Assembly: GCA_965205345.1 (NCBI GenBank)
Contig: CBDBGQ010000036.1
Span: forward strand, 65,463-129,462
Origin: Acidobacteriota bacterium
GTDB taxonomy: Bacteria; Acidobacteriota; UBA6911; RPQK01; CBDAPI01
Length of the DNA stretch: 64,000 nt
Reading direction: 5' to 3'
The notes under the pieces are model-generated. The model saw nothing but the letters and a program-made list of their open reading frames with translations. It ran no database searches and had not been told where the DNA came from. Positions 3,480 to 62,489 of the stretch are shown here, one piece after another (position 1 is the stretch's first letter; the number at the start of each line of letters is the position of its first letter). A program made the translations under genes and the position numbers.

Positions 3480-3493
3480 TATAGCCCGATGCC

Positions 3494-3526
3494 GGAACGT
3501 GGAACGTGGAATGTGGAACGTGGAAC
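3494..3526. repeat. (GGAACGT)n heptamer array, about 4.5 units, overlapping the PBP1A stop codon
   Basis: ggaacgtggaacgtggaatgtggaacgtggaac read directly. Confidence 0.8.
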
Positions 3527-5868: not shown

Positions 5869-5917
5869 CTTTCCCTTCGAACCTGCTCGGCAGTACTGGT
5901 TCCAATCTTAACCCATT

Positions 5918-6048
5918 GTTCCACGTTCCACGTTCCACGTTCCACGTCCCGGGGATCCTAAACGATTCCAGGTTCGAAGAAAGCGTGGAACGTGAAACGT
6001 GAAACGTGAAACGTGAAACGCGGAACGTGGAAGGTGGAACGTGGAACG
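5918..6048. repeat. Inverted pair of heptamer arrays, (ACGTTCC)4 then a 35-bp spacer then (GNAACGT)9, between greA and mrcA; a potential long hairpin
   Basis: gttccacgttccacgttccacgttccacg ... gtggaacgtgaaacgtgaaacgtgaaacgtgaaacgcggaacgtggaaggtggaacgtggaacg. Confidence 0.85.
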
Positions 6049-6055
6049 CAGAGCG

Positions 6056-14989: not shown

Positions 14990-14992
14990 TCC

Positions 14993-15027
14993 CGGGTTCC
15001 AGGTTCCAGGTTCCACGTTCCACGCTC
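14993..15027. repeat. (GGTTCCA)/(ACGTTCC)-type heptamer array
   Basis: gggttccaggttccaggttccacgttccacg lies between convergent genes. Confidence 0.75.
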
Positions 15028-15075
15028 CGGAGGAAGGGATTCGTAGGGGCCGTAAAGCCACCAGCGCCATCGAAT

Positions 15076-17579: not shown

Positions 17580-17608
17580 CGTGGAACGTGGAACGTGAAA
17601 CGTGGAAC
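17580..17608. repeat. (GGAACGT)n heptamer array, about 4 units, abutting the fabH stop
   Basis: gtggaacgtggaacgtgaaacgtggaac read directly. Confidence 0.8.
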
Positions 17609-19825: not shown

Positions 19826-19874
19826 CTCAGGTGCAGTGCGCTGACATCCCGCAGCGCGGCCCGACATTATATGC

Positions 19875-19980
19875 GTTCCACGTTCCATGTTCCAGGTGGG
19901 TTCTAGGTTCTGGGTTCTGGGTTCTGGAAATTTGGGATCCAAGCGTGGAACGTGGAACTTGGAACGTGGAACCTGGAACG
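19875..19980. repeat. Composite inverted heptamer structure: (ACGTTCC)-type arm, (GGGTTCT)4 spacer, (GGAACNT)-type arm
   Basis: gttccacgttccatgttccagg tgggttctaggttctgggttctgggttctgg ... gtggaacgtggaacttggaacgtggaacctggaacg. Confidence 0.85.
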
Positions 19981-20052
19981 CCGCGAGCGACAGCGAGTGG
20001 TTTCCTAGCAGCCCGTAACCCGAAGGGCACCAGGGCTTTGCGCCCAGTGCGA

Positions 20053-25344: not shown

Positions 25345-25402
25345 CCCGCTCTCATTTGCAGCATTTACCTGTGCGGACAGTCGCCTTGCCTGGAGTGTTA
25401 CT

Positions 25403-25428
25403 CGTTCCACGTTCCACGTTCCACGTTC
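25403..25428. repeat. (ACGTTCC)n heptamer array, about 3.5 units
   Basis: cgttccacgttccacgttccacgtt lies upstream of ispE. Confidence 0.8.
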
Positions 25429-25449
25429 GACGGAAGTCAAGTCAGCACC

Positions 25450-26475: not shown

Positions 26476-26633
26476 GTGTGCTGTCTGGGAAGTTCGCGGG
26501 GTTAATTCGGGATGGATTTTCGTCGCCAGTGAGGCGCGCGACGCAGGAATGCCGGGAGTCTTTCGAGGAGCGCAACAAAGCTGTCGGCGAAAAGACGCCC
26601 GAAGTAGCGTCGTGAACTTTCCGGATAGTACAC
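26476..26633. mobile_element. MITE-like element type B (158 bp; 24-bp TIR GTGYRCTGTCYGGRAAGTYCRCG), TA-flanked, abutting type A
   Basis: A second copy lies at 47109-47266, about 90% identical over its full length. Confidence 0.75.
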
Positions 26634-26635
26634 TA

Positions 26636-26665
26636 GCAGTCCGTGTTGAAAGTCGCGCGCTAGGG
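26636..26665. repeat. Solo copy of an IS1182-like terminal-IR motif (TAGCAGYCCGTGKTGAAARTCGCGCGC)
   Basis: Similar to the IS IR at 781-801 and to 35988-36018. Confidence 0.5.
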
Positions 26666-32157: not shown

Positions 32158-32165
32158 CAACGAAA

Positions 32166-32189
32166 ACGTTCCACGTTCCACGTTCCACG
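32166..32189. repeat. (ACGTTCC)n heptamer array, about 3.5 units
   Basis: cgttccacgttccacgttccacg lies between rplI and dnaB. Confidence 0.8.
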
Positions 32190-32288
32190 CATCTTGATTC
32201 CGAGTTGGCGGACTGGTTACCATGGAACCATCAGTCTTGCGGCTTCCTCGTTTACCTACTCAGACTGGTCTTATAAAGTGCGGTCGGA

Positions 32289-33656: not shown

Positions 33657-34708
33657 AGTCCCGGTCGTGGGTGGAAATCTCCGTTTCCAGCCTCAAACAC
33701 AATCTGAAAGCGATTCGGTCGCGCCTCCGCAAGGGCACGGCCATCATGCCCGTCGTCAAAGCGAATGCCTATGGCCACGGCCTTCTCCAGGTTGCCGGGA
33801 TACTGCGCCAGGAAGGGATCTCCAGATTCGCTGTTGCTCAGCCTGCTGAAGGTCTTGAGTTGCGGCAGGCCCTTGCCGAGAGCGAGATTCTGGTCTTCGG
33901 TGGTTGCCAGGAGAACGAGGGCCGGGACTTCATTGAACATCGCCTTACCGCAACCATCCACGACACTCGAACCGTACACCCCGACCTGGCAGTTGAAGTC
34001 AAAATCGATACCGGAATGACCCGAATCGGGATCCCCTGGGAGGAAGCGGCTGCTTTTCTCAGATCCACTCCTGCCCGGCTACAGGGTGTTTACTCCCACT
34101 TTGCGCGGGCCGACGCCGACGCCGACTTTTCCCGGCTGCAGATGGAGCGCTTCCTGAGAGCGACCCGTAACATCCCACAACGGCGACACATCGCGAACAG
34201 TGCGGGATTGAGGTTTCCCGAAGCACACCTCAACCTGGTCAGGGTCGGGCTGGCTCTGTATGGTGTGGCTCCTTGCCCCGGATTTGAAGATCTGCGACCC
34301 GCACTCACGTGGAAGAGTCGACTCATGGCCGTTCGTCGAGTCAAGGCAGGCCAGTGGGTTGGCTATGGGACATCTTTTCAGAGCCTCCGGGAATCGGTGA
34401 TTGGAGTATTGCCTGTCGGTTACGCCGATGGCTACCGGCGAGTTCTCTCGAATCAGGCAGATGTCCTTGCCCGCGGGCATCCGGCCAGGGTGGTCGGTAG
34501 TGTCAGCATGGACCTGACCTGCATAGACCTGACGGACATCGAGGGGATGCAGCCTGGAACTGAAGTCGAGCTCCTCAGCGCCGATCCAGACTCTCCCTTT
34601 CCTGCCGGGCCCTGGCAAGACTCGCTGACACCATTCCCTACGAGATTCTCACCGGGATCGGACCACGGGTGGAACGCCGCTACGTCGACTAAGTACTCAC
34701 TTCCATAA
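33653..34708 (+). CDS. alr: Alanine racemase, with an apparent 1-nt frameshift about 34615 that replaces the last 25 residues
   Basis: PLP-Lys 'MPVVKANAYGHG' is present. The conserved C-terminus '...ALARLADTIPYEILTGIGPRVERRYVD*' is readable in the -1 frame from a GGG(G) run onward. Confidence 0.8.
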   Translation: MKSRSWVEISVSSLKHNLKAIRSRLRKGTAIMPVVKANAYGHGLLQVAGILRQEGISRFAVAQPAEGLELRQALAESEILVFGGCQENEGRDFIEHRLTATIHDTRTVHPDLAVEVKIDTGMTRIGIPWEEAAAFLRSTPARLQGVYSHFARADADADFSRLQMERFLRATRNIPQRRHIANSAGLRFPEAHLNLVRVGLALYGVAPCPGFEDLRPALTWKSRLMAVRRVKAGQWVGYGTSFQSLRESVIGVLPVGYADGYRRVLSNQADVLARGHPARVVGSVSMDLTCIDLTDIEGMQPGTEVELLSADPDSPFPAGPWQDSLTPFPTRFSPGSDHGWNAATSTKYSLP

Positions 34709-34962
34709 ATACGATGATGTTTGTTGGGAGCGCGACGGAGACCAGATTGAGGCGAGACGACGAGTCGATGCGGGAGCATCGGCGAGGAGGAACAACAAAG
34801 AGATGGGCCCGTCCCGCCCCAACCCTTCGGGCGGATGGGGGTTGCGGGCGATCTCTTTGTCGTTCGTCGTCAACGATGCTACCGCATCGCCTCCTCCTCT
34901 CTTCGCAACCTCACCTCGCAAGCCCCATCCGCAAACATCATCGTATTTATGGAAGGGAGTAC
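34693..34962. mobile_element. MITE-like element type C (270 bp; about 30-bp TIR GTACTCACTTCCATAAATACGATGATGTTTG), TAA-flanked
   Basis: The terminal inverted repeats are read directly, and there is an internal GC-rich hairpin. It starts on the corrected alr stop codon. Confidence 0.7.
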
Positions 34963-34965
34963 TAA

Positions 34966-35080
34966 GGTTGAAAGTTCATGACACCACGACAACGGAACAG
35001 CAAGGCGTGAGCCTGCCGTTTCCCCAAAGCTGAGCTGACAACGGTGAGCTGGCGCTCTACCGTTCTGTGGGTTTCCTTGA
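34966..35080. repeat. Dispersed two-module repeat (type E) containing the hairpin AACGGCAAGGCGTGAGCCTGCCGTT
   Basis: Matches 47276-47372 with the two roughly 45-bp modules in swapped order. Confidence 0.6.
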
Positions 35081-35139
35081 CACCGAAACGTCTCACAGCC
35101 CTGTGCCGTTTCGTAGGTTTTCGACGACGGGCCCTCTGT

Positions 35140-36043: not shown

Positions 36044-38611
36044 TTGTCTTTGCCGGGCGACACACTGTGCTCTGAGTGTGGAACGGAATTATCCAGCCAG
36101 GAGCTGTCGCGAGGCCTGTGTCCAGGCTGCCTCCTGTCACTCGGGTTGAGCCTCTCCGCTGTGAGGGCGGGAATCGCTGAGCAGCCTCAACCATTCCCGG
36201 ATTTGATCGGGGCCTCCGTGTCTCGTTACCTCATCCTCGAGCAGATTGGCCGCGGAGGAATGGGCGAAGTCTTCCTGGCTCAGGACACTTCGCTGGGTCG
36301 AAGAGTCGCCCTGAAGTTCCTGCCCGGCGAGCTCCAGCAGCACCCCACTGCCAGACAGCGTTTTCTCAGAGAAGCCAAAGCTGCAGCAGCTCTGGACCAC
36401 CCTTACATCTGCAAGATTTATGAAATCGACGAATTTGAGGGCCGAAGCTTCATCTCCATGGAGTACGTACCGGGCAGGAACTTGAGGCAAAGACTGGAGG
36501 AAGGGCGCCTCTCTCTGGAAGACGCCTTGAACGCCGCCAGGGAACTGGCAGAAGCCTTCGAAATCGCCTTCCAGGGAGGAATCGTCCATCGCGACCTGAA
36601 GCCGTCCAATGTCATGTTCACCCCGGAAGGACATGTCAAGGTCCTCGATTTCGGGCTGGCCAAGAGAATCTTGCCGGACCGAAAGGAAGGAACGGAGGAT
36701 ACCTGGTTTTCCGACCTCACGGAGACCGGTTCCATCCTGGGAACACCCGCCTACATGTCTCCTGAACAGCTGCAGGGAAAGGAACTCGACCATCGATCAG
36801 ATATCTTCTCGCTGGGGGTCGTCCTCTACGAGATGGCAACTGGGGTTCACCCCTTTCTGAAGGACTCCAAACTGGAGACCATCAATGCGATCGTCTCGAC
36901 ACCGTTTCCGGAGTTGTCCGAACACCTGCGCGAAGCCCCCCCTTCTTTGCAGCGAACTCTGGAAAAGATGATGGCAAAGAAACCGCATCGCCGCTTCGCT
37001 ACATTCGGGGAGGTCCGTGAGAAACTGATGCGCCTTCTCGAAGACGTCAAGGCCACCGGTTACAAGAGCTTCTTCCGCGAGCTGCTGAGTCCCGGTGTTG
37101 TTTTGACTGCCGCTGCAGGTCTGGTCCTGGGGATCCTCTTCATCGCTTTCCTTTCCCTGGACCGCAGCGTACGCGAGGAAACTCGGAGAGACCAAACGAT
37201 GGACCGGGCGGGAATGCCCGTGGATCCAAACCCCCGAATTGCCGTTCTCCCGCTCGTCCATCTCGGTCCCAACGAGCAGGACGGCATCCTTGGTGAGGGA
37301 CTGACAGACTCCCTGATCACCCGACTGGCCAATGTAAGGGGACTGTCTGTGATTTCACGGACCTCAGTCATGTACTTCAAGGGAAAAGACCTGACTCTTC
37401 CCGAAATCGCCGAGAAACTGCAGGCAGACTACATACTGAACGGCAGTTTCCAGCGACCGGACAGCGAGTTTGTGGTGACGGTTCAGCTGGTGCGAGCTGC
37501 TGATGACACGACCGTGTGGGCAAAGGAGTACCGACAGGCCTGGACGGACATCCTGAGGGTCCAGTCTGACATCTCGCAACAGGTGGTCGAGAATATCAAC
37601 CTGGCGCTGGGCCCCGGGGAGGAGGCCGCGATCCGGGGATCCCCTGTGGAAAACGTCGGGGCCTACGAGCTTTATCTGCACGGCCGGTTCTTTCTGGCCC
37701 AGCGCTCCCGGACCGCCCTGGAGACCGCCATCTCGTATTTCCAGCAAGCCATTGAGCTGGATCCCGAGTCGGCGCTCGCGTACTCAGGACTGGCGGACGC
37801 CTATGGGCTGCTGGGAGCTACCGGCTATGGGGGACTGCCACCTGCAGAGGTCATGCCCAAAGCGGAGCAGGCTGCCCGCAAAGCTCTCTCCATTGACGGC
37901 AACTCGGCCGAAGCACACACCTCTCTGGCAAGCACGCTGATGTCCTACTACTGGGATTGGGAGGAGTCGGAGAAGCACTTCAAAACAGCGCTCCAGCTGA
38001 ATCCCGGTTACTCGACTGCCCGCCACTGGTACGGGCTCTATCTGGCAGCCACGTACGACCTGGAGGGTGCACTTCGTGAGATCGGGATGGCTCGAAGACT
38101 GGATCCCCTCTCCCCGGCGGCTAACGCCGCGCTGGCCCGCTGTCTCTACTACCGGCGCGAGTATGAAGCGGCCATCCCTTTGTACGAGAGGGCTCTCGAA
38201 CTGGATCCCGACTTTGGGCCGGCCCATCTCGGGCTGGCCCTGGCCTACGTGAAACAATATGAGAACTCGGACTCCAGAATCGAGCAGATGTCCCTGTTTC
38301 TGAACTCCATCTCCGAGTTTGAAAAAGGTGTCGGAGTTCCGATCAATGTTTTCGCTTTTGTGAACTCACTGATGGCATCCGCGCCCGATGAAGAGGAGTG
38401 GGAAGACGAGGTTCCACCCGTGTTCTTTGCGATTGCCTATACCATCCTCGGGGACTCGCCTCAGGCACTGGCATGGCTCGACAGGGCCGTTGAGGAGCGT
38501 TCCGAGTATCTCGTTTTTCTCAGGGTTGATCCGATTTTCGACAAGTTGCGCACCACTCCCGAATTCGATCAGATACTGGAGAGAGTTGGGCCCTCAGAGC
38601 AGTCTCACTGA
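36044..38611 (+). CDS. Ser/Thr protein kinase with N-terminal Cys-rich segment, TM helix and C-terminal TPR array, 855 aa
   Basis: 'GRGGMGEVFLAQD', 'VALKFL', 'HRDLKPSNVMF' and 'DFGLAK' kinase subdomains are present, with TPR repeats downstream. Confidence 0.85.
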   Translation: MSLPGDTLCSECGTELSSQELSRGLCPGCLLSLGLSLSAVRAGIAEQPQPFPDLIGASVSRYLILEQIGRGGMGEVFLAQDTSLGRRVALKFLPGELQQHPTARQRFLREAKAAAALDHPYICKIYEIDEFEGRSFISMEYVPGRNLRQRLEEGRLSLEDALNAARELAEAFEIAFQGGIVHRDLKPSNVMFTPEGHVKVLDFGLAKRILPDRKEGTEDTWFSDLTETGSILGTPAYMSPEQLQGKELDHRSDIFSLGVVLYEMATGVHPFLKDSKLETINAIVSTPFPELSEHLREAPPSLQRTLEKMMAKKPHRRFATFGEVREKLMRLLEDVKATGYKSFFRELLSPGVVLTAAAGLVLGILFIAFLSLDRSVREETRRDQTMDRAGMPVDPNPRIAVLPLVHLGPNEQDGILGEGLTDSLITRLANVRGLSVISRTSVMYFKGKDLTLPEIAEKLQADYILNGSFQRPDSEFVVTVQLVRAADDTTVWAKEYRQAWTDILRVQSDISQQVVENINLALGPGEEAAIRGSPVENVGAYELYLHGRFFLAQRSRTALETAISYFQQAIELDPESALAYSGLADAYGLLGATGYGGLPPAEVMPKAEQAARKALSIDGNSAEAHTSLASTLMSYYWDWEESEKHFKTALQLNPGYSTARHWYGLYLAATYDLEGALREIGMARRLDPLSPAANAALARCLYYRREYEAAIPLYERALELDPDFGPAHLGLALAYVKQYENSDSRIEQMSLFLNSISEFEKGVGVPINVFAFVNSLMASAPDEEEWEDEVPPVFFAIAYTILGDSPQALAWLDRAVEERSEYLVFLRVDPIFDKLRTTPEFDQILERVGPSEQSH

Positions 38612-39918
38612 TGTAGACTGCGCGAGAATGCTGCGAAGTCGATCCGGTCGATTGACTGGAGGGCGCTCTCGTAGAGCTTCCATGCGCCTCCAGAAGCGGA
38701 GACGCTCCCACTTCGATTCTGAGGCCCGGACACAGAAGATCCGCTGGACTTGAAGGTCGCCAGACCGCAATAGTCCTCGAAGCCCTCATATCGCTCAGGC
38801 TCAACTCTCTTGAGGTAGGCGTTCAGGCTCAGGTTGGTGAGAGCCAGATAGCCCTCCGCGGGTGGAAGGATCGGCAAATGACTCTTCTCAGCGCTTCTGA
38901 GGATCCGGCGAAGCAGACTCCCGAAGAACTCGAATGTGTCAATCCCAAGAGCTTCAAAATCGGGTCGGTAGTCCAGGACCACGGGAATCGTCAGGACCAG
39001 AAATCGAGTGCGGCGCAAGCGGTAGCGAGTGCTGCAGCGAATTGTAGCGGGAACATATCCCAACCTGGCATATTCCCGCGGGAAGGCGCAGTGCCGGGTC
39101 TCGTCCCGGTAGAGACTTTGCAGAATCTGATCCAGGCCGGCGCAGGAAGGCAGTCTGGAGAAAATTTGGAGGGCAAACGTTTCCATCAATACATTCAGAC
39201 CGAACAACCTGGTGAACGGGTCACTACGGGCGATCAACTCGAGAAGAATCCTGGCGGAAGGATAAAGCGGCCTGGGCTTGCCCCACAGCGTCTCGAGCAG
39301 GGCTTTCATGACAGCGAAATGACGGGCTTCTTCAACGACCTGAGCACTCAGTCGGAGTTTGGATCCGGTACCCTCCAGGGAGGCCAGCAGAGTTGACGAA
39401 ATATGAAGGGCATAGGCCTCGCCGTGAGCCAGCAGCGAAAGGATCGAAAAGAGACCTTCCCGCTCCCGCGGAGAGAAACTACTTTGGAATTTGCTTCGAA
39501 TGACTGGCGAACTCGCGAGCTCAATCAGGTTGACGCCCTCTGCAGCTGGAGGAGTTCGAGATTGAGGTCCTTCCTCCGGTAGAGTCTCCGTCAGATGGGG
39601 ACCAGGAGCCTCGATCTCCGCCTCCCACAGGCGCCGTAAGGCCCGCTCGTAGTGGCGCGCTCCGGGTGTGTCAGCTCCATTACTCTCAAAAGAGCCAATC
39701 CGATCGTCGTAGCCGGTCTCGCTACGCCAACCTACGTAACATCGGATCGGCTTTTCACAGCGACGGTAAAGCCATCCCCCGCTGAAAGCTAGTCTTGTGC
39801 ACCAATGAATAACGAAATCCTGCAAGCCTGTTCCACTCACTGAACAAGAATGGTAACTAACGATTCTGCTTCTGCAAACAAGTCGGTGCTGATCCAGAGG
39901 AGGTTTGGTATTGCGCAA
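38605..39918 (-). CDS. Ferritin-like diiron-carboxylate protein (two E..ExxH half-sites; AurF/desaturase-like), putative oxygenase; N-terminal extent uncertain
   Basis: Helices carrying 'GEAYA', 'EEARH', 'METFA' and 'DETRH' are spaced as in four-helix-bundle diiron proteins. Confidence 0.4.
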   Translation of the reverse strand: MRNTKPPLDQHRLVCRSRIVSYHSCSVSGTGLQDFVIHWCTRLAFSGGWLYRRCEKPIRCYVGWRSETGYDDRIGSFESNGADTPGARHYERALRRLWEAEIEAPGPHLTETLPEEGPQSRTPPAAEGVNLIELASSPVIRSKFQSSFSPREREGLFSILSLLAHGEAYALHISSTLLASLEGTGSKLRLSAQVVEEARHFAVMKALLETLWGKPRPLYPSARILLELIARSDPFTRLFGLNVLMETFALQIFSRLPSCAGLDQILQSLYRDETRHCAFPREYARLGYVPATIRCSTRYRLRRTRFLVLTIPVVLDYRPDFEALGIDTFEFFGSLLRRILRSAEKSHLPILPPAEGYLALTNLSLNAYLKRVEPERYEGFEDYCGLATFKSSGSSVSGPQNRSGSVSASGGAWKLYESALQSIDRIDFAAFSRSLHQ

Positions 39919-40743
39919 ACCCGATTGCTATGCTTCCTGTTGTTGCACTTTCAAACCCAACCGCTCTCGACAATTACACTCTGCCTGGGTGCCTGGATGA
40001 TCTGCTGGGGGCTCGGGGTTTCCGCTTCCGAATACCAACATCCCTCTTCCATCAGCCAACTTGTGGGGCGAGCTCGCTCTCTGCAGGAGCAGTACCGGGA
40101 GCGTGAGGCCCTGGATCTCTACCTACAGGCTCTCAAAGTCGATCCTGATCATTTTGAGGCGGTCTGCGGCGCCAGCTATCTGTACGGCCAGGTGGGAAAG
40201 CGCCTCTCCGACAAGAAGAGCCAGAGAGAGTACTACCGGAGGTCCCAGACTCTGGCCCGGCAGGCCTTTGCCGCCAGGCCCGATGACCCGGAGGCCAATC
40301 TGGTGATGGCCTGGTCGCATGGAGGCATAGCCTTGATCTCCGGCTTTCGGGAAAAGGTAGCGGCCGGCTGGAAAGTCAAGGAGCACGTCGACCGGACTCT
40401 CGAGAGCAGGCCCGAAGATCACAGGGCCTGGTACATTCTGGCCAATCTCAACTACCAGGCGGGGACGGTCGGCTTTCTCCAGAAGAGCCTGGCCAGGGTC
40501 TTGTTCGGAGGAGTACCAAAGGAGCTTTCCCTCGAAAAGGCAATTGAAGCTTATCGGAAAGCAGTGGAGATCCGGCCCGATTTCATACTCTATCGGTATG
40601 AATTAGCGCGTGCTCTCAACCGCTCGGGCCTAAAGAGCGAAGCTTCCGAGCACCTTCGCCAGGCCCTGATCCTGGAGGCCAGGTTCGAAGATGACCCCGC
40701 TGTCCTGAAGCAGTGCCGGAAATTACTTTCTCGTCTCAATTAA
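39850..40743 (+). CDS. TPR-like helical repeat protein, possibly a TatT-family paralogue; start uncertain
   Basis: All-helical with TPR-like periodicity. It lies upstream of the disrupted tatT-like gene. Confidence 0.4.
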   Translation: MVTNDSASANKSVLIQRRFGIAQTRLLCFLLLHFQTQPLSTITLCLGAWMICWGLGVSASEYQHPSSISQLVGRARSLQEQYREREALDLYLQALKVDPDHFEAVCGASYLYGQVGKRLSDKKSQREYYRRSQTLARQAFAARPDDPEANLVMAWSHGGIALISGFREKVAAGWKVKEHVDRTLESRPEDHRAWYILANLNYQAGTVGFLQKSLARVLFGGVPKELSLEKAIEAYRKAVEIRPDFILYRYELARALNRSGLKSEASEHLRQALILEARFEDDPAVLKQCRKLLSRLN

Positions 40744-40892
40744 CCTGCCCTCTTCCCTTCCCAGAAGGATTGCATCTTGTAACTCTCCAGCACTTTTGCT
40801 TTATTAGCGCACAGGAGTACCTCATGAACATAAAGATGAAGCTTGGACACAGCCTGTTTCTGGTCTCCTTCACCCTCCTGCTTCCGCTTTCC

Positions 40893-42224
40893 GGCTAAGC
40901 AACTGTTTTTCTGTAATTTGACTGAGAGTGATCTGAGATCGGATTCTCCTGTGGTTTGAAATCGACCAGGCTGAGGTACTGTTTCCCGATCAGCCAGTCT
41001 TCGTGAATCTCCTCGACGACAGCGGTGATGAGTCGTAGTGCGGACTCGGTGTTTGGAAAGATACCGACGACCCGGGTACGCCGGCGAATCTGACGGTTTA
41101 GGTTCTCCAGCCCGTTGTTGGTGCGAATGCGCCGCCAGGCAGAACGTGCAAAACGAAAGACCGTAAAGCCTTCCGGCAGATTGGTCTCCATCCAATCGGC
41201 CAGCTCCGGGTTGCGGTCGTAGTATTGCTCGACTCTGGCCCGAAGCATCGCCTCAGCTTCGCCTCCAGACGGGGCATTGAAGATGTCTCGAATGTCAGTG
41301 GCGATGGCGGCACGTTGGTCGGATCGGCGGGCGTATCGCTGAGCATTCTGGCTCAGGTGAAACTGACAGCGTTGCCAGGGCACTGAAGGAAAGACAGCTC
41401 TTCTGGCAGCTCGTAGTCCTGAGTGGTCATCGCTGACAATCAGCTGCACACCCTCCAGACCACGCTTTTGAAGCTGCTGCAGAAACTCTCGCCAGTGGAC
41501 CTCCGCCTCGCTGAGTCGGCAGCTGACCCCAATCACCTCCCGCTTGCCCCAGCAGTTGACTCCGGTCGCTTTCAAGACGGCCACATCCTGAATGCTGCCC
41601 TGGCGACGGACCTTCTCGTAGTGGGCATCCAGGTACACAACTGGATAGCTGCCCAAAGGGCGGTTGCGAAACTGCTCGAGTTCGTCGTCCAGCAGCTTGG
41701 AGATTCTTGAGACCTGGCTGGCGGAGATCTCGGTGCCGCACAGCTGCTCGGTAATCTCAGTGACCTTGCGCGTCGACACGCCCATCACGTACATCTCGGC
41801 GATGGCCAGCTTCAGGGCTTTCTCCGAGCGGCACCCTCGCTCCAGGGATCGGGGATAGAAGTCCAGGTGACGTACTTGTGGAATCCGGATTTGAAGCTGT
41901 CCCACTCGAGTTGACAGCGTCTTGGCCTTGTACCCGTTGGCGTGGTCTCGACGCTGCTCGCTCCGCTCCCAGCGTCGAGCTCCCAGAAACTCTTCTCGTT
42001 CCATCTGCATGGCGGTGTTGAGCAGTTTCTCCAACACTCCTCGAAACGCGTCGCTGCCTTCTTCGATCAGTTCTTTCAACAATTCTCGTGGTAGCCTCTG
42101 TTCTGGGTCTGGGGTCATTCGGATCCTCCTTGCTCTTGTCTTGAGTTTTTGGAGAAATCCTGCCCCAGACCTCTGATCCTTTTAGCTCACCTTCCTCAAA
42201 TTACAGAAAGAACGGTACACCCCT
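40893..42224 (-). mobile_element. IS256-family insertion sequence (about 1.33 kb) with imperfect terminal IRs and 8-bp TSD CGCTTTCC
   Basis: TSD at 40885-40892 and 42225-42232. The IRs share ...TTCTGTAATTTGA. Confidence 0.8.
40895..42118 (-). CDS. IS256-family (Mutator-like) transposase, 407 aa
   Basis: Typical IS256 transposase length and motifs (DxxH...E catalytic region 'VVYLDAHYEKVR', 'CQFHLSQN'). Confidence 0.85.
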   Translation of the reverse strand: MTPDPEQRLPRELLKELIEEGSDAFRGVLEKLLNTAMQMEREEFLGARRWERSEQRRDHANGYKAKTLSTRVGQLQIRIPQVRHLDFYPRSLERGCRSEKALKLAIAEMYVMGVSTRKVTEITEQLCGTEISASQVSRISKLLDDELEQFRNRPLGSYPVVYLDAHYEKVRRQGSIQDVAVLKATGVNCWGKREVIGVSCRLSEAEVHWREFLQQLQKRGLEGVQLIVSDDHSGLRAARRAVFPSVPWQRCQFHLSQNAQRYARRSDQRAAIATDIRDIFNAPSGGEAEAMLRARVEQYYDRNPELADWMETNLPEGFTVFRFARSAWRRIRTNNGLENLNRQIRRRTRVVGIFPNTESALRLITAVVEEIHEDWLIGKQYLSLVDFKPQENPISDHSQSNYRKTVA

Positions 42225-43128
42225 CGCTTTCCTCAGCTTGTTCGGTCCGCCGCTATGCGGTAAACATGGTGGGGGACGCGCTGGCATCGGGAAACTCGGT
42301 GTATGAGACGGATGAGGATATCGAGCTGGTCGGCGAGGCATTTCCCTTCGCTCTCAAGCTGACCGAGACCCTGTTGGCCGAATCACCCAATCATCCCGGC
42401 TTGCTGATCACCGCTTGCAAGGGGTTTGTGGGCTACTCCTACGCCTACGTCGACTTCCGGGCGGAGCTGGCAGAGGAAACCGACCTGGACCGAGCCCGAG
42501 TGCTTCGAACTAGAGCGAGAAAACTTTATCTGCGCGCCCACAATTACTGTACGCGGGGCCTCGAGCGATGGTACCCGGGGTTGACAGCTGCCCTGACAAC
42601 GGATCCTCAAGCGGCGGTCCGTCTGACCAAGGAAAAGAAGCGCGACAGGGATCTCCCTTTTCTCTATTGGACAGCCGCCGCACTGGGCAGTGCCATTTCA
42701 GCGTCCCGAGACGACGCAGCCATGCTGGCGCGACTACCCGAGGTTGAAGCACTGCTCGATCGTGCCCTGATGCTGGATGAGGACTGGAACAAAGGCTCAC
42801 TCTACGAGGTCAAGGTGCAGCTTGCAGGAGCGAAAGTCTGGGGGGGCGATGAGCAGGAGATCGCCCGGAATTACGAGAGGGCCCTGATGCTCTCGAGCGG
42901 GCAGCATGCCGCCCTGTTCGTGACCTATGCGGAAGCTGTCGCAATCCCGAACCAGGATCGGGAACTGTTTCTAACACTGATGAATCGAGCCCTCTCCGTC
43001 AACCCTGACCTCGATCCTGAGAACCGGCTCCTCAACCTCCTCGCCCAGCGCAGGGCTCAGTTCCTGCTGGATCGAATTGAGGACCTCATCCTAAGTGATG
43101 ACCCGACCCAGGGCCAGGGAGGCCAACC

Positions 43129-44139
43129 ATGAAAATTCCAACCGTTGGCAGTTGGTTGATTCTACTTGGGGGTCTGCTGCTGTTCGGGTCCGTTCTCCAG
43201 GCTCAGACCATCCGGATCCGGATTGGAACCGTGGCGCCCCAGGACTCCCCGTGGCACGAAACTCTCAAGCAGCTTCGTCAGGAATGGCACAGAATCTCCC
43301 AAGGAGCGGTCCGGGTCCAGATCTATCCCGGGGGCGTGCTGGGCGACGGACCGGAAATGGTCAGACAAGTGCGTGCCGGTCGAATCCAGGCGGTGGCCCT
43401 CTCCTCTGCCGGGTTGGCCCAGATCGACAAGGGGATCTCCTGTCTTCAGATTCCCCTGATGTTTGATTCCTATGAGGAACTCGACTACGTAAGAGCACGC
43501 ATCTCGGATCAACTCGAGAAGCGGCTCGAGCAGCGGGGATTCAAGCTCCTGCACTGGGGAGACGCCGGCTGGGTCCACTCCTTTACAACTGCACCCGCGC
43601 GGACACCCAATGATCTTCGCAAGCTCAAACTCTTTACCCACGCCGGAGATCCGGACATGGAGAGCCTCTACAAGGAGTTTGGCTTCCGAGTTGTCCCGCT
43701 TTCGCTCACCGATTTGATCACCTCTCTTCAGACGGGAATGATCGAAGCCGTGAGCCTGCCCCCGCTCATCACTTTACTCAACGAGTCGTACCGTCTGGCC
43801 CCCAATATGGCGAGCTTCAGATGGACTCCGATGGTGGCAGGAACCGTGATCAGCCTGAAAACCTGGGAGCAGATTCCAGAAGAGCTCCGCCCCAGAATGC
43901 TGGAGGCGGCCACTAAAGTCGGTGACCTTCTGCGAGATGAAATCCGCCAGATGGATGGCGATGCAGTGGCTGAAATGGAAAAACGCGGACTGCAGGTGAT
44001 CGACCTGAATCAAGACGAACTCGACCGCTGGCAGAAGGAGGCTGAGGATGCTTATCCTCGCCTCCGGGGACGCTATGCTCCGGCCGACCTCTTTGACGAA
44101 GTTCGCCGTCTGCGCGATCAATTCCGAGCTCAAAGGTAA
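43129..44139 (+). CDS. TRAP transporter solute-binding protein (DctP-family; TatP-like)
   Basis: Signal peptide and DctP-family fold. Its start overlaps the tatT-like stop (ATGA), as in TPAT operons. Confidence 0.75.
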   Translation: MKIPTVGSWLILLGGLLLFGSVLQAQTIRIRIGTVAPQDSPWHETLKQLRQEWHRISQGAVRVQIYPGGVLGDGPEMVRQVRAGRIQAVALSSAGLAQIDKGISCLQIPLMFDSYEELDYVRARISDQLEKRLEQRGFKLLHWGDAGWVHSFTTAPARTPNDLRKLKLFTHAGDPDMESLYKEFGFRVVPLSLTDLITSLQTGMIEAVSLPPLITLLNESYRLAPNMASFRWTPMVAGTVISLKTWEQIPEELRPRMLEAATKVGDLLRDEIRQMDGDAVAEMEKRGLQVIDLNQDELDRWQKEAEDAYPRLRGRYAPADLFDEVRRLRDQFRAQR

Positions 44140-44674
44140 GAGCTCAAAGGTAAGAGGTTGTGAGACTGTCACGGGCAGCCAACCGACCAGTTCTGGTCTG
44201 GTTCGAAGACTCCCTTTCGCTCCTCATTCTCAGCCTGATGGCGCTTCTGCCAGTCATTGAGATCCTGGGCCGGACCCTGCTGGGAAGGGGAATTCCCGGC
44301 TCCATCGTGCTGGTCCAGCACATGACGCTCTGGATCACGATCCTGGGGGCCGCCCTGGCAGCACGGAGTCACCGCCTGCTCGCTCTTTCCAGTTTGAATT
44401 TTTTCCCGGAGAAGCTGCGCCCTCCAGTGCGCGTGGGCACCTCCATGCTGGCAACAGGCATTACCGCCATCCTCTTCGTTGCCAGCCTGGATTTTGTTCG
44501 AATCGAACGCGAGGCCGGTACCGAGCTGGCCTGGGGCATTCCCGCCTGGCTGGCTCTGACCATTCTGCCGACAGGGTTCAGTGTGATCACGCTGCGGCTG
44601 ATCTGGCATGCCGCGGAGACTCACCGGGGAAGGTTGTTGGCAGCAGCTGGACTGGCCATTCCGGTTATTTTTGG

Positions 44675-45892
44675 GGGATTATATACGAAAGTGGCGAAAT
44701 AGGTGGACGGCTGCTTAAAGGTACGCTAAGCTAGAAGCCGTACAGCGAAACGCCCCGGTTCCAGCCGGGGCGGTGGATAACCCTTAACCGGCTGGTCCAA
44801 TGGGTGCCTAAGCCTCAGACCAGCTACTGGAGTACAGCTATGCCCAAGACTATCCTCAATGTCACCCTCCCGTCAACCCTCGCGCTCAATACGGTGCTCG
44901 CTCAGGACATCAAGGTCCTGGCGAAGGTCGATCAAGCCATGGCCAAGCCAAATGCCATCGTCGACCAGTCGTTCAGAAAGGTGAACTCCTGGACGTAGCG
45001 GTCCAGGTGCTTGGGGCTGAGCTTGTGGAAGGTGCCCTTGTGCGCTCGCTTGAGCATCGACCACAGCGATTCAATCCCGTTGGTGTGAACCTCGCCCTTG
45101 ACGTACTCGGAGAGCGAGTGCTTGACCGTGGCGTGATTGAACCGTAGCGACTCGTAGGCGGTCGCATCGTCGGTGTAGACCGTCGCACCAGGGGCCGCGT
45201 GTTCCTCGACGAATCCCTGCAACGTTTGCTGGTCCGTCGCATGAACGACCTTCGCGGCCACGCGCTTGGTTCGGCGGTCCTTCGCTCCGACCGCCGCCGT
45301 CTTGCCGACGGGTCCACGGCCCGTGTTGGCCAGGGCCTTCCGTCGGGTGTTGCTCATGTTCCGGCGACGACCGCCGAAGTATGTTTCGTCGATTTCAACG
45401 GGACCGGCGAACCGCACCCCATCCTGCGACAAGGCCGCCCGGAGCCGCTGCGCGAGGAACCACGCGGATTTCTGCGTGATACCCAAGTCGCGGTGGAGCT
45501 TCATGCTCGACACGCTCTTGAGGCTAGTCATGATCTGGAAGATGGCGATGATCCAGTCCTGATAGCCGATCTTCGAGCCTTCCATGATCGTGCCGGTCTT
45601 GACGCTGAACTTCTTGCCGCATGCCTTCTCACGGCAGCGGAACGGCATCGTCTTGTGCTTGCACCCCGTCTGCACGTTGACGGAGCCGCAGTCGTGGCAG
45701 CATACGCCGTCAGGCCACCGCTGCTGGATGAACCACCGCTCCGCCGTCGCGTTGTCGGGGAACATCCGCATGATCTGTTTGAGGGAAATGCCTTTGCGGA
45801 ACGCTTTGCCTGGGGCCTTCTTTCTCATGCCCCTAGTTTACAGGAAAGTGGCTGCGTGTCAAGAGTAAACGCCACTTTCGTATATAATCCCC
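44675..45892 (-). mobile_element. IS1595-family insertion sequence (about 1.2 kb), 22-bp perfect terminal IRs GGGGATTATATACGAAAGTGGCG, TSD TATTTTTG
   Basis: IRs at 44675-44697 and 45870-45892. Direct repeat at 44666-44673 and 45893-45900. Confidence 0.85.
44932..45828 (-). CDS. IS1595-family (ISXO2-like) transposase with N-terminal zinc-ribbon
   Basis: 'CCHDCGS...C..C..KFSV' Zn-ribbon, then DDE domain 'VEIDETYFGG'. Confidence 0.8.
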   Translation of the reverse strand: MRKKAPGKAFRKGISLKQIMRMFPDNATAERWFIQQRWPDGVCCHDCGSVNVQTGCKHKTMPFRCREKACGKKFSVKTGTIMEGSKIGYQDWIIAIFQIMTSLKSVSSMKLHRDLGITQKSAWFLAQRLRAALSQDGVRFAGPVEIDETYFGGRRRNMSNTRRKALANTGRGPVGKTAAVGAKDRRTKRVAAKVVHATDQQTLQGFVEEHAAPGATVYTDDATAYESLRFNHATVKHSLSEYVKGEVHTNGIESLWSMLKRAHKGTFHKLSPKHLDRYVQEFTFLNDWSTMAFGLAMA

Positions 45893-47108
45893 TATTTTTG
45901 GAACGGTTCCCCTGCCCCAGGGCCGCGAAGTTGTGCTTCCCTGCTTTCTCCTGATTGTTGTTGCCACGATGCTGGAGATGCCAATCTTCACCGCCATTGG
46001 CGGAATCGCACTCCTGGGCCTCTGGAGCGACGGCACTCCCATCAACTCGGTGCCCGGGGAAACCTACCGGTTGACGGTCAACGCCATGCTGCCGGCGATC
46101 CCCCTGTTTGCCCTGGGGGGTTACATACTGGCCGAAGGAGGAGCCAGCCGCCGCCTGATGCGACTGTTTACCGCCTGGGTCGGGTGGATGCCGGGCGGGT
46201 TGGCTGTCGTCACCGCTCTGGTGCTGGCCTTCTTCACTCCCCTGACCGGCGCCTCGGGTATCACCATTGTTGCCATGGGCGGCATGTTTCTCCCGGTTCT
46301 CTTGAAAGCAGGCTATCCACGGCAAACGTCCCTTGGATTGGTGACGGTCTCGGGATCCATCGGCCTGCTCTTTTTTCCCAGCCTTCCGGTATTCCTTTAT
46401 GCCTTCTACGCAAAGCAGCACTACAAAGAGCTGTTTGTGGGTGGGTTTCTACCCGGTCTCCTCCTGGTCACCTGTGTGGCTGGCTGGGCCGCAGCCAGGG
46501 GATGGCAGCGGGGAGCGGAACGGACCCCCTTTCGACCCCACGAAGCGGGGGCAGCTGCCTGGGAAGCCAAATGGGATCTGGTGCTTCCAGTACAGGAACC
46601 TGAGTCCTCGGAAGCATTTACCCAAGGTCTTTGTGGAATGCTCCACCTTGATCGGGGGCTTCATGATCATCCTCTGCGTAGCCCTGGGATTTGTCTATTA
46701 TCTGACGCTGGTCGAGATCCCGACAATGGCTCTCGAGTGGGTGCAGGCGCATATCGAGTCTCCCCTCGTCTTTTTGCTGGCCCTGAACCTGCTGCTGATC
46801 ATTGTCGGGGCCCTGATGGATATTTACTCCGCCATCGTCGTCGTGGTTCCGCTCATCATTCCCATGGCGGCAGCCTATGGCATCGATCCTGTCCATCTGG
46901 GAATCATCTTTTTAGCCAATATGGAGCTCGGTTACCTGATGCCGCCCATGGGCGAGAACCTGTTCCTTTCCTCCTATCGCTTTGACAAACCACTCACACA
47001 GGTCTACCGGTCCACCCTGCCCTATATTCTCATCCTGCTGGGAGTCGTCCTTCTGATTACATACGTCCCGATTTTTACTCTGGGCCCGATCGAGCTCTTG
47101 CTCCGCTA

Positions 47109-47266
47109 GTGTACTGTCCGGGAAGTCCACGGTGTTAATTCGGGATGGATTTTCGTCGTCAGTGAGGCGCACGACGCAGGAATGCCTGGAGTATTTCGAG
47201 GTAGCGCAACAAAGCTGTCGGCGAAAAGACGCCCGAAGTAGCGGCGTGAACTTTCCGGACAGTGCA
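47109..47266. mobile_element. MITE-like element type B, copy 2, TA-flanked, starting on the dctM stop codon
   Basis: About 90% identical to 26476-26633. Confidence 0.75.
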
Positions 47267-47275
47267 CTAGGGTTG

Positions 47276-47431: not shown

Positions 47432-47935
47432 ATGACCCGCGTCGTGAGTTTTCAGGAATTTTCCGTTTTTGGAGATGCGGCCCGACTCTGGGTCTATCCT
47501 TTCCGGGATCCCTTGACCGGGCCGCCCCGCAGCCTGCTGGGGCAGACGCTGAATGGTTTTCTACCCACCTGGGCTTCCCATGGGGCACGGGTTGAGGGCC
47601 GCTTTCTTATTCACGAGGACCGGTTCGTCCTGCTGGTCGGCGACTCCCCGGCCGGGATCTCGGGTTGTTCCATTGACAGCAGCGTTGAGAATTTCAAGAT
47701 GCTTCGGGATCGGCATGGCCTGGACGGTCTGGATCGCTCGCTGGTCTTCTTTCGGGACACAGCAGGCCGCATCCAGGCAGAGCATTTCTTCGACTTCCAG
47801 AAGCTGGTATCTTCCGAGCGCATAGTACCGGACACGCCCGTCTTTGACACTACGATCACCACTCTGGGGGAACTTCGAGAGGGTGGCCTGGAGAAGCCCT
47901 TCCAGGATTCGTGGCACGCCGCACGGTTTTCTTGA
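47432..47935 (+). CDS. Hypothetical protein, 167 aa
   Basis: ORF with plausible composition and no recognisable motifs. It ends exactly at a heptamer array. Confidence 0.35.
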   Translation: MTRVVSFQEFSVFGDAARLWVYPFRDPLTGPPRSLLGQTLNGFLPTWASHGARVEGRFLIHEDRFVLLVGDSPAGISGCSIDSSVENFKMLRDRHGLDGLDRSLVFFRDTAGRIQAEHFFDFQKLVSSERIVPDTPVFDTTITTLGELREGGLEKPFQDSWHAARFS

Positions 47936-48172
47936 TTCCACGTTCCACGTTTCACGTTCCACGTCGTGCGCTCATTGTCATTCGCGCCTTTTGCCTGCCC
48001 GGCGGCTGGACAGATCATCTCCGGAACACCGGCCCGCAAGGCCGTGAGGAACTGTCACCATCAAGGAAACGACAGAGGCAGGAACGAAAGTGACTGCGCA
48101 GCAGCGCGGAAGCTGCCGGGAAAACGCCTCACGCTGCGCAACCGTGGAACGCGAAACGTGAAACGTGGAATG
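47936..48172. repeat. Inverted pair of heptamer arrays, (ACGTTYC)4 at 47936-47964 and (GNAACGT)4 at 48143-48172, flanking a 180-bp spacer
   Basis: Read directly. Confidence 0.8.
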
Positions 48173-48179
48173 CGAAGCG

Positions 48180-48545
48180 CTAGTCAGAATGACTGACATA
48201 AGGCCCCCCGTGGAAGTCTTCCAGGGCCTCATCCTCGTCTTCCGCAAAATCGAGCAGCGGAAGAATTCGCCCCAGATCCAGAACATGTCGAACCTGAGGA
48301 GCAATACTAAGGAGCTTGACCTGGCAACCGGCTTTCTCCGCCCGCTTGATGGAAGCCACCAGCTCGCCGACCCCGGTGCTGTCAATGCGCGAGACCTTTT
48401 CGAGATTCAGGAGAACCTTCCCCTCTCTTTTCCCGATCAGCTTGTCCATCGAATCCCGGAGCTGCTCGGCACCAACTCCTGCGACGAGACGGCCCTCAAT
48501 GTCGACAATCACGACATCTTCCGTTTGCCTCAATTCGATCTTCAT
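48180..48545 (-). CDS. STAS-domain anti-sigma-factor antagonist (SpoIIAA-like)
   Basis: 'MKIELRQTEDVVIVDIEGRL...LLNLEKVSRIDSTGVGELV' is typical. Confidence 0.7.
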   Translation of the reverse strand: MKIELRQTEDVVIVDIEGRLVAGVGAEQLRDSMDKLIGKREGKVLLNLEKVSRIDSTGVGELVASIKRAEKAGCQVKLLSIAPQVRHVLDLGRILPLLDFAEDEDEALEDFHGGPYVSHSD

Positions 48546-48638: not shown

Positions 48639-49061
48639 ATGAGGTGCCACTGGTCGTCTGCAAGCAGCTCTTTGCTGCTGATCCTACTCTTTTTCGAGCC
48701 GCTGTCAGCGCAGAGAGGCGAGTTTTCGCTGGAGCAGGTCATGAGTGCCGGCTTTCCCTCGGAAATGACTGCTGCCCCGGTCGGTGGAGCTGTGGCCTGG
48801 GTCATCAATGAACGGGGCAGATCGCCCGTTCTTCTGATCCACGGAGACGATGATCGCAACGTCCCTTTCAGCGAGACGGTCGATCTGGTAGCAGCCTTGA
48901 GAAAGCAGGGGGTTGAATTCGAGCAGCTGGTTTTTCCCGATGAAGTCCATGGATTTCTGACCCACCACTCCTGGATACGAGCCTTTCAGGCTGCGGCCGA
49001 GTTTCTGGAGCGCAGGCTCATGTCCACCCGGCACAAAGTTGGAGACAACCCGGAACAATAA
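48639..49061 (+). pseudogene. Remnant of an S9 (prolyl-oligopeptidase/dienelactone hydrolase) family peptidase: signal peptide fused to the extreme C-terminus, with roughly 500 residues missing
   Basis: The signal peptide plus the first propeller strand run directly into 'LLIHGDDDRNVPFSETVDLVAALRKQGVEFEQLVFPDEVHGF', which is the catalytic Asp/His region at the S9 C-terminus. Confidence 0.5.
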
Positions 49062-62314: not shown

Positions 62315-62391
62315 GACGACTGCTCCAAACCTAACAGACCAGGACAGCAGATGCTAGTGCTCTGCACTAACGGTCGGGCTGGGGCCCAACC

Positions 62392-62489
62392 GCGTTCCAC
62401 GTTCCACGTTGTCTCGGTGTAGGAAAACTCTCGGACGAGGCACGACGTGGAACTTGGAACGTGGAAACGTGGAACGTGAATCTGGAATG
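62392..62489. repeat. Inverted pair of heptamer arrays in the maf/PqqD intergenic region
   Basis: gcgttccacgttccacgtt ... cgtggaacttggaacgtggaaacgtggaacgtgaatctggaatg. Confidence 0.8.

Follow-up and report, generated by a model that had tools for sequence, protein, structure and literature searches.

An accessory transporter operon that carries two insertion sequences (ISs) raises the question of what disabled it: are the two elements recent and its only lesions, or do they belong to a longer series of damage? The operon lies in a window of 64,000 nucleotides, as we call the whole stretch of DNA analyzed, from an uncultured, soil-type Acidobacteriota genome, and is a probable fatty-acid uptake system. 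A sequence-only reading of this window had described ongoing operon loss by two IS insertions. Both elements indeed interrupt the operon, but a third lesion, a 95-bp deletion, had been missed. Our comparison with related loci makes it very probable that this TPAT-type TRAP operon has been decaying sequentially, with an insertion shared between strains as the first event and further lesions following, and that it now is a pseudo-operon. The IS256-family element is called IS-A and the IS1595-family element IS-B in what follows. The features are:

39850-40743, plus strand: TPR / RMD1-3-like protein, 297 aa (Pfam TPR_11, PF21033 RMD1-3)
40824-40892, plus strand: tatT 5' fragment, codons 1-23, signal peptide up to ...LLLPLS, aligning with the starts of the 322-aa TatT genes in L002-L008
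40885-40892, no strand: left target-site duplication of IS-A, CGCTTTCC (right copy at 42225-42232)
40893-42224, minus strand: IS-A, IS256 family, 1332 bp, with intact transposase (ORF 40895-42118, 407 aa)
42225-43132, plus strand: right copy of CGCTTTCC (42225-42232) and tatT 3' fragment, codons 24-322 (PF16811 in the restored ORF)
43129-44139, plus strand: dctP / tatP(T)-like solute-binding protein, 336 aa (PF03480, 1.4e-50; NF037995, 287 bits)
44160-44673, plus strand: dctQM 5' fragment, DctQ domain and hydrophobic Q-M linker (PF04290 at residues 27-153)
44674-45892, minus strand: IS-B, IS1595 family, 1219 bp (transposase ORF 44932-45828; PF12762, 3e-40)
45893-46591, plus strand: dctQM middle fragment, N-terminal half of DctM, in frame with the 5' fragment after IS-B removal
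46590-46591, no strand: junction of the 95-bp deletion with GT microhomology, seen as gaps in the Pfam profile and in protein and DNA alignments
46592-47109, plus strand: dctQM 3' fragment, C-terminal DctM in another frame (PF06808 profile positions 261-411)
47110-47267, no strand: MITE-like element, 158 bp, inserted at the CTAG that holds the dctQM stop, with TAG duplicated

Identity of the operon and its neighbor

Judged by gene content and profile matches, tatT, dctP/tatP(T) and the fused dctQM constitute a predicted four-component TPAT-type TRAP uptake operon, and the earlier assignment to this type is upheld. TatT, encoded directly 5' of dctP with a 4-nt overlap, matches PF16811 in its restored form (1.1e-73, profile positions 2-262 of 263). 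Its best solved homolog is Tp0956, the TatT of T. pallidum (1.5e-31), and 8g52, the TatT of E. salina, was matched at 3.9e-4. For DctP, the T. pallidum TatP(T) protein Tp33/Tp0957 was the best PDB match (~1e-31), ahead of every other DctP structure. The reconstructed permease is a DctQ and DctM fusion containing PF04290 and PF06808, as are its intact homologs P0001-P0004, which comprise 603-605 aa with both domains and share 80-92% identity. Exact-protein look-ups of DctP, the IS-B transposase, P0121 and P0004 returned no records.

[quoted passage not shown] With the T. pallidum system, the window operon shares the gene order tatT, dctP-type binding protein and fused QM, a TatT that is matched by PF16811 along its whole length and by Tp0956, and Tp0957 as the nearest solved structure of the binding protein. 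Also in common is a Cys-containing, lipoprotein-like signal peptide of TatT, in which residues 22-26 (...LSSAC) read as a lipobox-like pattern. In contrast, the window proteins share little sequence identity with their spirochaete counterparts. TPAT systems are characterized by a trimeric TatT and a P component, both periplasmic lipoproteins that bind each other. The signal peptide of the binding protein here is of the ordinary Sec type and has no lipobox Cys. The host is an environmental Acidobacteriota in which the system is a pseudo-operon known from its sequence. By homology to the TatT proteins of T. pallidum and E. salina, for which fatty-acid binding and TPAT biology have been described (PMC5812351, PMC11713862), the substrate would probably be long-chain fatty acids or other hydrophobic carboxylates. 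Among Acidobacteriota, TRAP systems with a TatT are common; our searches found hundreds to thousands of homologs. Published descriptions of the group come for the most part from proteobacteria, spirochaetes and marine microbes.

The TPR gene upstream of tatT had been taken for a TatT paralog, a view that finds no support. BLASTP detected no homology between the two proteins (E = 9.8), the Pfam search gave just generic TPR families and PF21033 without PF16811, and the PDB matches are generic TPR proteins. The gene is instead a conserved neighbor that occupies the same syntenic position in L002-L008.

The two elements and a third lesion

For IS-A, the coordinates, the IS256 assignment and the 8-bp duplication CGCTTTCC were all borne out by profile matches and the flanking copies. 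The transposase matches PF00872 at positions 20-377 of 379 (1.6e-109, 366.7 bits) and scores 358.8 bits with the IS256 family model NF033543, for which the cut-off is 150 bits. A length of 1.33 kb, a single 407-aa Mutator-type DDE transposase, terminal inverted repeats, an 8-bp duplication within the 8-9 bp class of ~1.3-kb IS256 elements and the multicopy state mark IS-A as a member of this family from an uncultured Acidobacteriota. A second copy and the empty sites define its ends. Its terminal inverted repeats match imperfectly, but 14 nt on the inner side, TTTCTGTAATTTGA, are identical. The second copy, full-length and located in L001, is 99.925% identical to that of the window and lies between duplications of a different 8-mer, TCGCCCGA. 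Seven related Acidobacteriota MAGs contain at least 79 exact left ends, and full-length copies of at least 99% identity numbered 21 of 58; in these MAGs, the element shows a clear recent burst.

In the window, the interrupted tatT runs into IS-A and then terminates (LSG, followed by a stop). Excising IS-A and one copy of the duplication in silico yielded a continuous 322-aa TatT ORF that includes the junction ...LLLPLSSACSVRRYAVNMVGD..., as had been anticipated. The term signal-peptide exon used for the 5' fragment is nevertheless a misnomer, as IS-A inserted after codon 23, within the lipoprotein-type signal peptide.

IS-B is flanked by the 8-bp target duplication TATTTTTG at 44666-44673 and 45893-45900, intact on both sides as noted before. 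The boundaries given for it were essentially right, but the element starts at 44674 and not at 44675, one G being ambiguous. Likewise, the inverted repeats are perfect but measure 23 bp and not 22 bp; the repeat GGGGATTATATACGAAAGTGGCG occurs twice in the window, with 0 occurrences expected by chance. These repeats, the 8-bp duplication and the ISXO2-like DDE transposase (PF12762, NF033547) are those of the IS1595 family. With PF12762, the window transposase scores 138 bits, and the full-length 326-aa transposase P0265 reaches 175.5 bits with NF033547 (cut-off 75).

The window copy derives from an element of 1870-1873 bp by internal deletion, with 650 bp gone at a junction with AAC microhomology (44984-44986). 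Its transposase of 298 aa, compared with 326 aa in the full-length form, consists of 284 native and 14 foreign residues; it diverges after ...DRYVQEF and lacks the last 42 residues. Because the 650-bp deletion truncates the transposase C-terminus, the window copy probably is non-autonomous. Of the two IS families that had been called active, IS-A fits the description with its dozens of near-identical copies in related MAGs, but the IS-B copy, having lost 650 bp and 42 codons, does not. Some IS1595 subgroups carry passenger genes. The full-length 1.87-kb relative similarly has an extra ORF downstream of tnp, and this passenger region is missing from the window copy together with the transposase end. 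The passenger ORF, a downstream 167-aa ORF and a 437-aa antisense ORF gave no Pfam or NCBIfam matches. Upstream of tnp in IS-B, a promoter-like site is found at 45862-45835 on the minus strand. The 326-aa forms P0264 and P0265 predominate in the 90% cluster, and P0265 is found on 16 contigs. Because a scan of the metagenome contigs (metagenome_contigs) with the IS-B inverted repeat gave no matches, the copy number of IS-B is based solely on this cluster membership.

The 5' ORF of dctQM in the window comprises 180 aa and ends 9 codons inside IS-B. After IS-B excision, the junction LAIPVIFGTVPLPQGREVVLPCFLL reads continuously, as had been stated, but further downstream the gene is frameshifted by the 95-bp deletion. 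This deletion removes about 31 DctM codons (VILGSIIGGYATLVEAAALMVGLALLIECV) and shifts the frame, and positions 222-260 of the Pfam DctM profile are absent from the window protein. In DNA alignments, the 95 bp are present in L002, L003, L005, L007 and L008, and the middle fragment shows 98-99% nucleotide identity to L002 and L005. With both IS elements removed, dctQM measures 1723 nt, which is not divisible by 3. IS excision thus leaves dctQM unrepaired, because the frameshifting deletion is a third lesion. As the window stems from a MAG, either deletion, that of 95 bp or that of 650 bp, might represent a minority variant or a collapse in the assembly. The original dctQM stop, TAG, lies at 47107-47109. 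The adjoining 158-bp MITE-like element, which has a second copy in the window at about 26477-26636, is absent in L002 and L003 and present in L007 and L008; it is outside the operon proper and part of the same mobile-element load.

Probable order of the lesions in related strains

The interruption stood up to a comparison with relatives: in the five metagenome loci L002-L006, the syntenic operon is intact, coding for a TatT of 322 aa, a DctP of 336 aa and a DctQM of 603-605 aa, and the two sites are uninterrupted with one copy of each 8-mer. CGCTTTCC is single-copy at the IS-A empty sites of L002, L003 and L005-L008, and so is TATTTTTG at the IS-B empty sites of relatives. Two further loci, L007 and L008, come from metagenome long-read assemblies and are 99.3-99.8% identical to the window. 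In both, a full-length IS-B occupies exactly the site it has in the window and is likewise flanked by TATTTTTG. IS-A and the 95-bp deletion are missing from both and are private to the window. Since IS-B is common to the window, L007 and L008 and IS-A is private, IS-B is the older of the two insertions. Both had been considered recent on account of intact duplications and perfect inverted repeats, but the unequal distribution shows that their ages differ.

After IS-B removal, dctQM of L007 is a perfect 605-aa ORF. The tatT gene of this strain carries a C>A change that converts TGC to a TGA nonsense codon, an independent second lesion, although this substitution, too, could be an error. Frameshifts in tatT, dctP and dctM of L008 were discarded as lesions; they are single-base homopolymer indels in an assembly of 5x coverage and probably errors.

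The tatT-dctP segment is only 74-90% identical to L002 and L003, compared with 94-100% in the flanks. Accelerated tatT decay or a recombination breakpoint made by IS-A were rejected as explanations, as the divergence begins upstream of IS-A (~40804). This early start, a dS of ~1.0 with dN/dS of 0.14 and the occurrence of the same allele, intact, in L005 and L006 point to an allelic dimorphism of long standing that homologous recombination has moved. Against L005, the window genes have dN/dS values of 0.12-0.46, which argues against a long neutral phase. Five substitutions in the operon, four of them nonsynonymous, are specific to the window, a density of 1.3/kb compared with 0.56/kb in the flanks. 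With five sites, this excess of nonsynonymous and of total substitutions is suggestive (p roughly 0.04, binomial, and 0.07, Poisson). Three window-specific nonsynonymous changes are located in dctP, at 43592, 43768 and 43771.

A proposed stepwise decay and its alternatives

We propose that, in a first step, an IS1595 element of ~1.87 kb with a 326-aa transposase and a small passenger ORF entered the Q-M linker of dctQM. This would have duplicated TATTTTTG and parted the Q and M domains, as a first hit that L007, L008 and the window have in common. The remaining operon, left with a broken permease, would then have drifted and lost its function. In the window lineage, IS-A landed after tatT codon 23, where it duplicated CGCTTTCC and detached the lipoprotein-type signal peptide. 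The deletion of 95 bp frameshifted DctM, that of 650 bp within IS-B truncated the element's own transposase, and dctP gained nonsynonymous changes. In L007, tatT would have received the TGC to TGA nonsense change instead.

Against this decay reading, the dctP ORF is still intact, and IS-B lies in an inter-domain linker, where separate Q and M products are conceivable. IS-B might hence not have been inactivating and might have split the fused permease into a DctQ-like protein of 180 aa and a DctM-like protein of ~423 aa, with IS-A and the 95-bp deletion killing the window operon later, a course of events that we consider unlikely. The site of IS-B, after the DctQ domain (residues 27-153) and before DctM (residue 188 onward), would allow it, gene callers give separate 180-aa and 423-aa products in L007, IS-B was kept in three strains from three samples, and many TRAP systems normally have Q and M as separate subunits (PMC11713862). 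However, IS-B cuts the hydrophobic linker, between ...LAIPVIFG and TVPLPQG..., that joins both domains in fused permeases, and expression of the M half would require another promoter and another start codon. A promoter scan, a weak test, revealed no outward-facing sigma-70-like site at either of the IS ends, and no obvious ribosome-binding site can be read from the sequence for GTG at 45933, the first start codon in frame. Furthermore, an additional operon lesion is present in the window and in L007, the two strains that allow a judgment, as is expected once selection is gone. We therefore favor IS-B as the probable inactivating first hit.

Little credence can be given to the simpler account in which two recent, roughly contemporaneous IS elements, both active, are the sole lesions and their exact removal would give back a functional operon. 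It is in agreement with the confirmed elements, duplications and local frame continuity and with the empty sites of relatives, but is contradicted by the 95-bp frameshift in the excised 1723-nt dctQM, by the sharing of IS-B and not of IS-A with L007 and L008, and by the 650 bp and 42 transposase codons missing from IS-B. Repeat mis-assembly in the MAG is hardly credible as the source of the IS copies or deletions: the contig of 131 kb and the high-copy IS-A, prone to chimeric joins, might raise this suspicion, but chimeric joins do not make perfect 8-bp duplications of a sequence that is single-copy in relatives, two other samples independently yielded assemblies with IS-B at this site, and the sequence on both sides of each IS runs collinearly with one and the same operon.

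IS-driven pseudogenization and reductive evolution are familiar from Shigella, Bordetella pertussis, relatives of Mycobacterium leprae and recent symbionts. As in these IS-expanded lineages, a disruptive IS came first in the proposed stepwise decay, followed by a second IS, small deletions and a nonsense mutation in an operon no longer under selection, and the IS copies are polymorphic (present or absent) among strains. In contrast, the population described here is a free-living environmental one, known through metagenomes. We may also speculate, at long odds, that IS-B created a functional natural un-fusion of the TRAP permease in the ancestor of the three strains, or that loss of the lipid importer was itself selected, as repeated independent tatT hits might indicate. 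If either is true, the locus would offer a natural experiment, on the QM architecture of TRAP systems or on how lipid uptake is lost adaptively.

The mechanism as such is ordinary, with ISs and small deletions turning an accessory transporter operon into pseudogenes, but it is unusually well documented here. For annotation, it follows that dctQM cannot be repaired by removing the ISs and that the IS1595 copy should be labeled a deletion derivative. The value of the locus lies in a dated, strain-resolved example of decay in an uncultured Acidobacteriota population, in which one common first hit, probably IS-B, was succeeded by differing secondary lesions in sister strains.

Operon identity and the two insertions

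The sequence-only reading described two insertion sequences in a TRAP transporter operon, and both lie, with flanking duplications, almost exactly at the coordinates it quoted; sequence reading and in-silico excision confirm this. The interrupted operon consists of tatT, dctP and a fused dctQM gene:

40893-42224, 1332 bp: IS-A, IS256 family, minus-strand ORF, splitting tatT
43129-44139: dctP, 336 aa, intact (PF03480; NF037995, 287 bits)
44674-45892, 1219 bp: IS-B, IS1595 family, ORF 44932-45828, splitting dctQM

Removal of IS-A and one duplication copy yields a 322-aa TatT ORF with the peptide quoted earlier, and removal of IS-B leaves the frame open across the junction, again with the quoted peptide. 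Across its entire length, restored TatT fits PF16811 ('TRAP transporter T-component', 1.1e-73). Its matches among solved structures are T. pallidum TatT Tp0956 (1.5e-31) and, weakly, the palmitate-bound E. salina TatT crystal structure 8g52 (PMC11713862). The TatT signal peptide contains a Cys (...LSSAC); that of DctP is ordinary. The top solved matches of the dctP product are Tp33/Tp0957 TatP(T), the partner of T. pallidum TatT. DctQ and DctM domains share a single frame in the third gene, whose nearest database relatives are fused proteins of 603-605 aa (80-92% identity). This architecture corresponds to the TPR-protein-associated TRAP transporters (TPAT) known from T. pallidum (PMC5812351, PMC11713862). 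Long-chain fatty acid binding has been demonstrated for TatT proteins (PMC5812351, PMC11713862), and by analogy long-chain fatty acids may be the substrate here. The upstream ORF (39850-40743), previously taken for a TatT paralogue, is a TPR / RMD1-3-like protein syntenic in all relatives; its similarity to TatT was undetectable by BLASTP (E = 9.8), so that paralogy is unsupported. At 44126-44153 a 14-bp tandem duplication (GAGCTCAAAGGTAA x2), single-copy in the strain L007, spans the dctP stop codon.

IS-A is bordered on both sides by CGCTTTCC (40885-40892 and 42225-42232), and its terminal repeats are imperfect, with identity limited to the inner 14 nt TTTCTGTAATTTGA. Its single ORF (40895-42118, minus strand, 407 aa) matches Transposase_mut PF00872 (1.6e-109, profile positions 20-377 of 379) and NF033543 'IS256 family transposase' (358.8 bits, cut-off 150). 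A second copy in the locus L001 is 99.925% identical across all 1332 bp and has its own, different 8-bp duplication TCGCCCGA. Among the species-representative genomes scanned, the left end had at least 79 exact matches in seven Acidobacteriota MAGs, at least 50 of them in one MAG alone; in the fetched sequence blocks, 21 of 58 full-length copies showed at least 99% identity and the remainder 92-97%. IS-A is therefore active, and these copies are evidence for a recent burst of this IS256-type element. The genome scan also assigns the window lineage to the Acidobacteriota. The insertion also created a hybrid ORF (42149-43132, 327 aa) that starts with TTG in the IS right end and runs into tatT without a signal peptide; its product, if expressed, would be cytoplasmic and presumably of no use.

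Related strains and the order of events

Relatives were long metagenome contigs obtained via exact-protein look-ups of the closest homologues. In five of them (L002-L006) the operon is complete and uninterrupted in the same neighbourhood, with a single copy of the relevant 8-mer at each of both insertion points. Their gene order is Ser/Thr kinase, TPR protein, TatT (322 aa), DctP (336 aa), DctQM (603-605 aa), a small ORF and a STAS protein; flank nucleotide identity to the window is 94-97% (L002, L003, L004) or about 96% (L005, L006). Two nearer strains from two other samples, L007 and L008, are 99.3-99.8% identical to the window. Both carry IS-B with identical position and duplication, but lack IS-A, the empty site holding one CGCTTTCC, and retain 95 bp deleted from the window dctQM. 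Hence IS-B is the older, shared insertion, whereas the window lineage alone has IS-A and the 95-bp deletion, and of the two insertions proposed as recent only IS-A is confined to that lineage.

The ends of IS-B form a perfect inverted repeat of 23 bp, GGGGATTATATACGAAAGTGGCG, which has no third site in the window (0 expected by chance). The element is bordered by TATTTTTG (44666-44673 and 45893-45900); its left edge is 44674 rather than 44675, one G being ambiguous. Its ORF matches PF12762 (3e-40). The sister strains hold the full-length element of 1870-1873 bp:

L007 10233-12105: full-length IS1595-family element
L008 10514-12383: full-length IS1595-family element

These encode a 326-aa transposase (P0264, P0265), the predominant form in its 90% cluster; P0265 was found on 16 contigs. 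A further ORF of ~134 aa, a possible passenger gene, overlaps the transposase stop codon, and a short ORF lies on the opposite strand; both are without matches in Pfam and NCBIfam. The window copy is short by 650 bp (junction 44984-44986, AAC microhomology), and its 298-aa transposase departs after ...DRYVQEF into 14 unrelated residues. Because the full-length form occupies the same site in the sister strains, this deletion occurred in place. Of the two IS families thought to be active, IS-A thus qualifies by its many near-identical copies, whereas the window IS-B is a deletion derivative and probably non-autonomous.

With both elements removed, dctQM measures 1723 nt, which is indivisible by three. 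DctM Pfam profile positions 222-260 are absent, alignment to four intact homologues (P0001-P0004) leaves a gap of ~39 columns, and DNA alignment with five relatives places a 95-bp deletion at 46590/46591 (GT microhomology), by which ~31 codons are lost and the frame is shifted. Repairing the permease would thus take more than IS excision, and frame restoration holds for tatT and the IS-B junction only. Without IS-B, the L007 dctQM forms one flawless ORF of 605 aa.

Identity to L002/L003 falls to 74-90% across the tatT-dctP segment, with flanks at 94-100%. This divergent tract (about 40800-43880) stops within dctP and has a dS of about 1.0, compared with only 0.01-0.1 in the flanks (window versus L002-L004). 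Divergence by decay or linked to the IS was rejected, since the tract begins upstream of the IS-A site, dN/dS is 0.14, and L005 and L006 hold the same allele intact. L002 and L003 are 99-100% identical within the tract and 93-97% outside. The tract is an allelic dimorphism swapped by homologous recombination within the population.

Neighbouring mobile elements and polymorphisms

47110-47267: MITE-like element, 158 bp; second copy at about 26477-26636
2401-2461, 3479-3539, 5915-6067, 14989-15030, 17580-17628, 19865-19999, 25385-25432, 32158-32190, 47924-47964, 48143-48191, 62371-62488: GTTCCAC / GTGGAAC clusters
48639-49061 (L002 13171-13452; L003 13158-15290): Peptidase_S9 / DPP-IV-type gene

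The MITE-like element (terminal repeats TGTACTGTCCGGGAAGTCCACG and GTGCACTGTCCGGAAAGTTCACG), absent in L002 and L003, sits exactly on the CTAG holding the dctQM stop codon, with TAG duplicated. At the same CTAG, L007 has a 1.44-kb IS5-like element (13418-14861; DUF772 and DDE_Tnp_1, 452 aa) with a CTAG duplication; CTAG seems to be a preferred target for both elements. The heptamer clusters, tandem runs often in inverted pairs and dispersed over intergenic regions, are a REP- or MITE-like repeat family. Downstream of the operon, the peptidase gene is a further deletion polymorphism: the full 710 aa are present in L003 and L004, but only a remnant of 140 aa is left in the window, L007 and L008, and one of 93 aa in L002. 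A ~425-bp stretch (34693-35117) with long inverted arms (34689-34966) is not in L002-L006, and at the point matching window position about 35116-35124, L008 bears another IS256-family element, distinct from IS-A, with a 414-aa transposase. A 1.5-kb stretch (38568-40071), missing from L002, L005 and L006, is found in L003, L004, L007 and L008; its 437-aa antisense ORF has no Pfam or NCBIfam match.

Probable sequential decay of the transporter

Sequential decay is the best-supported reading. On this reading IS-B severed the hydrophobic Q-M linker and parted the two permease domains, after which the remaining operon genes accumulated lesions. In L007 tatT, a C>A change turns a Cys codon into TGA, an independent second hit on the gene struck by IS-A in the window. 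Four of five window-private operon substitutions are nonsynonymous (three in dctP, one in dctQ), at a density of 1.3/kb against 0.56/kb in the flanks (7 kb); from so few sites, relaxed selection is only suggested. Long-term dN/dS versus L005 is still 0.12-0.46, and the neutral phase was therefore short. Extra frameshifts in L008 were left out as homopolymer indels in a 5x assembly.

The main alternative, that the Q and M halves stayed functional once split, is improbable in our view: a search for an outward promoter-like site found none, the first possible M start has no obvious ribosome-binding site, and both judgeable strains (window, L007) carry additional operon damage. An assembly artefact is unlikely, given the perfect target duplication at each IS and three samples that independently assembled IS-B at the identical site.

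As an overall account, the earlier observation stands and its interpretation does so in part. The case is ordinary IS-mediated pseudogenisation, with a TPAT operon in Acidobacteriota and IS256 and IS1595 family members that are new and unnamed. It is of modest interest for its resolved sequence of events and for the evidence it gives of a recent IS256-type burst.
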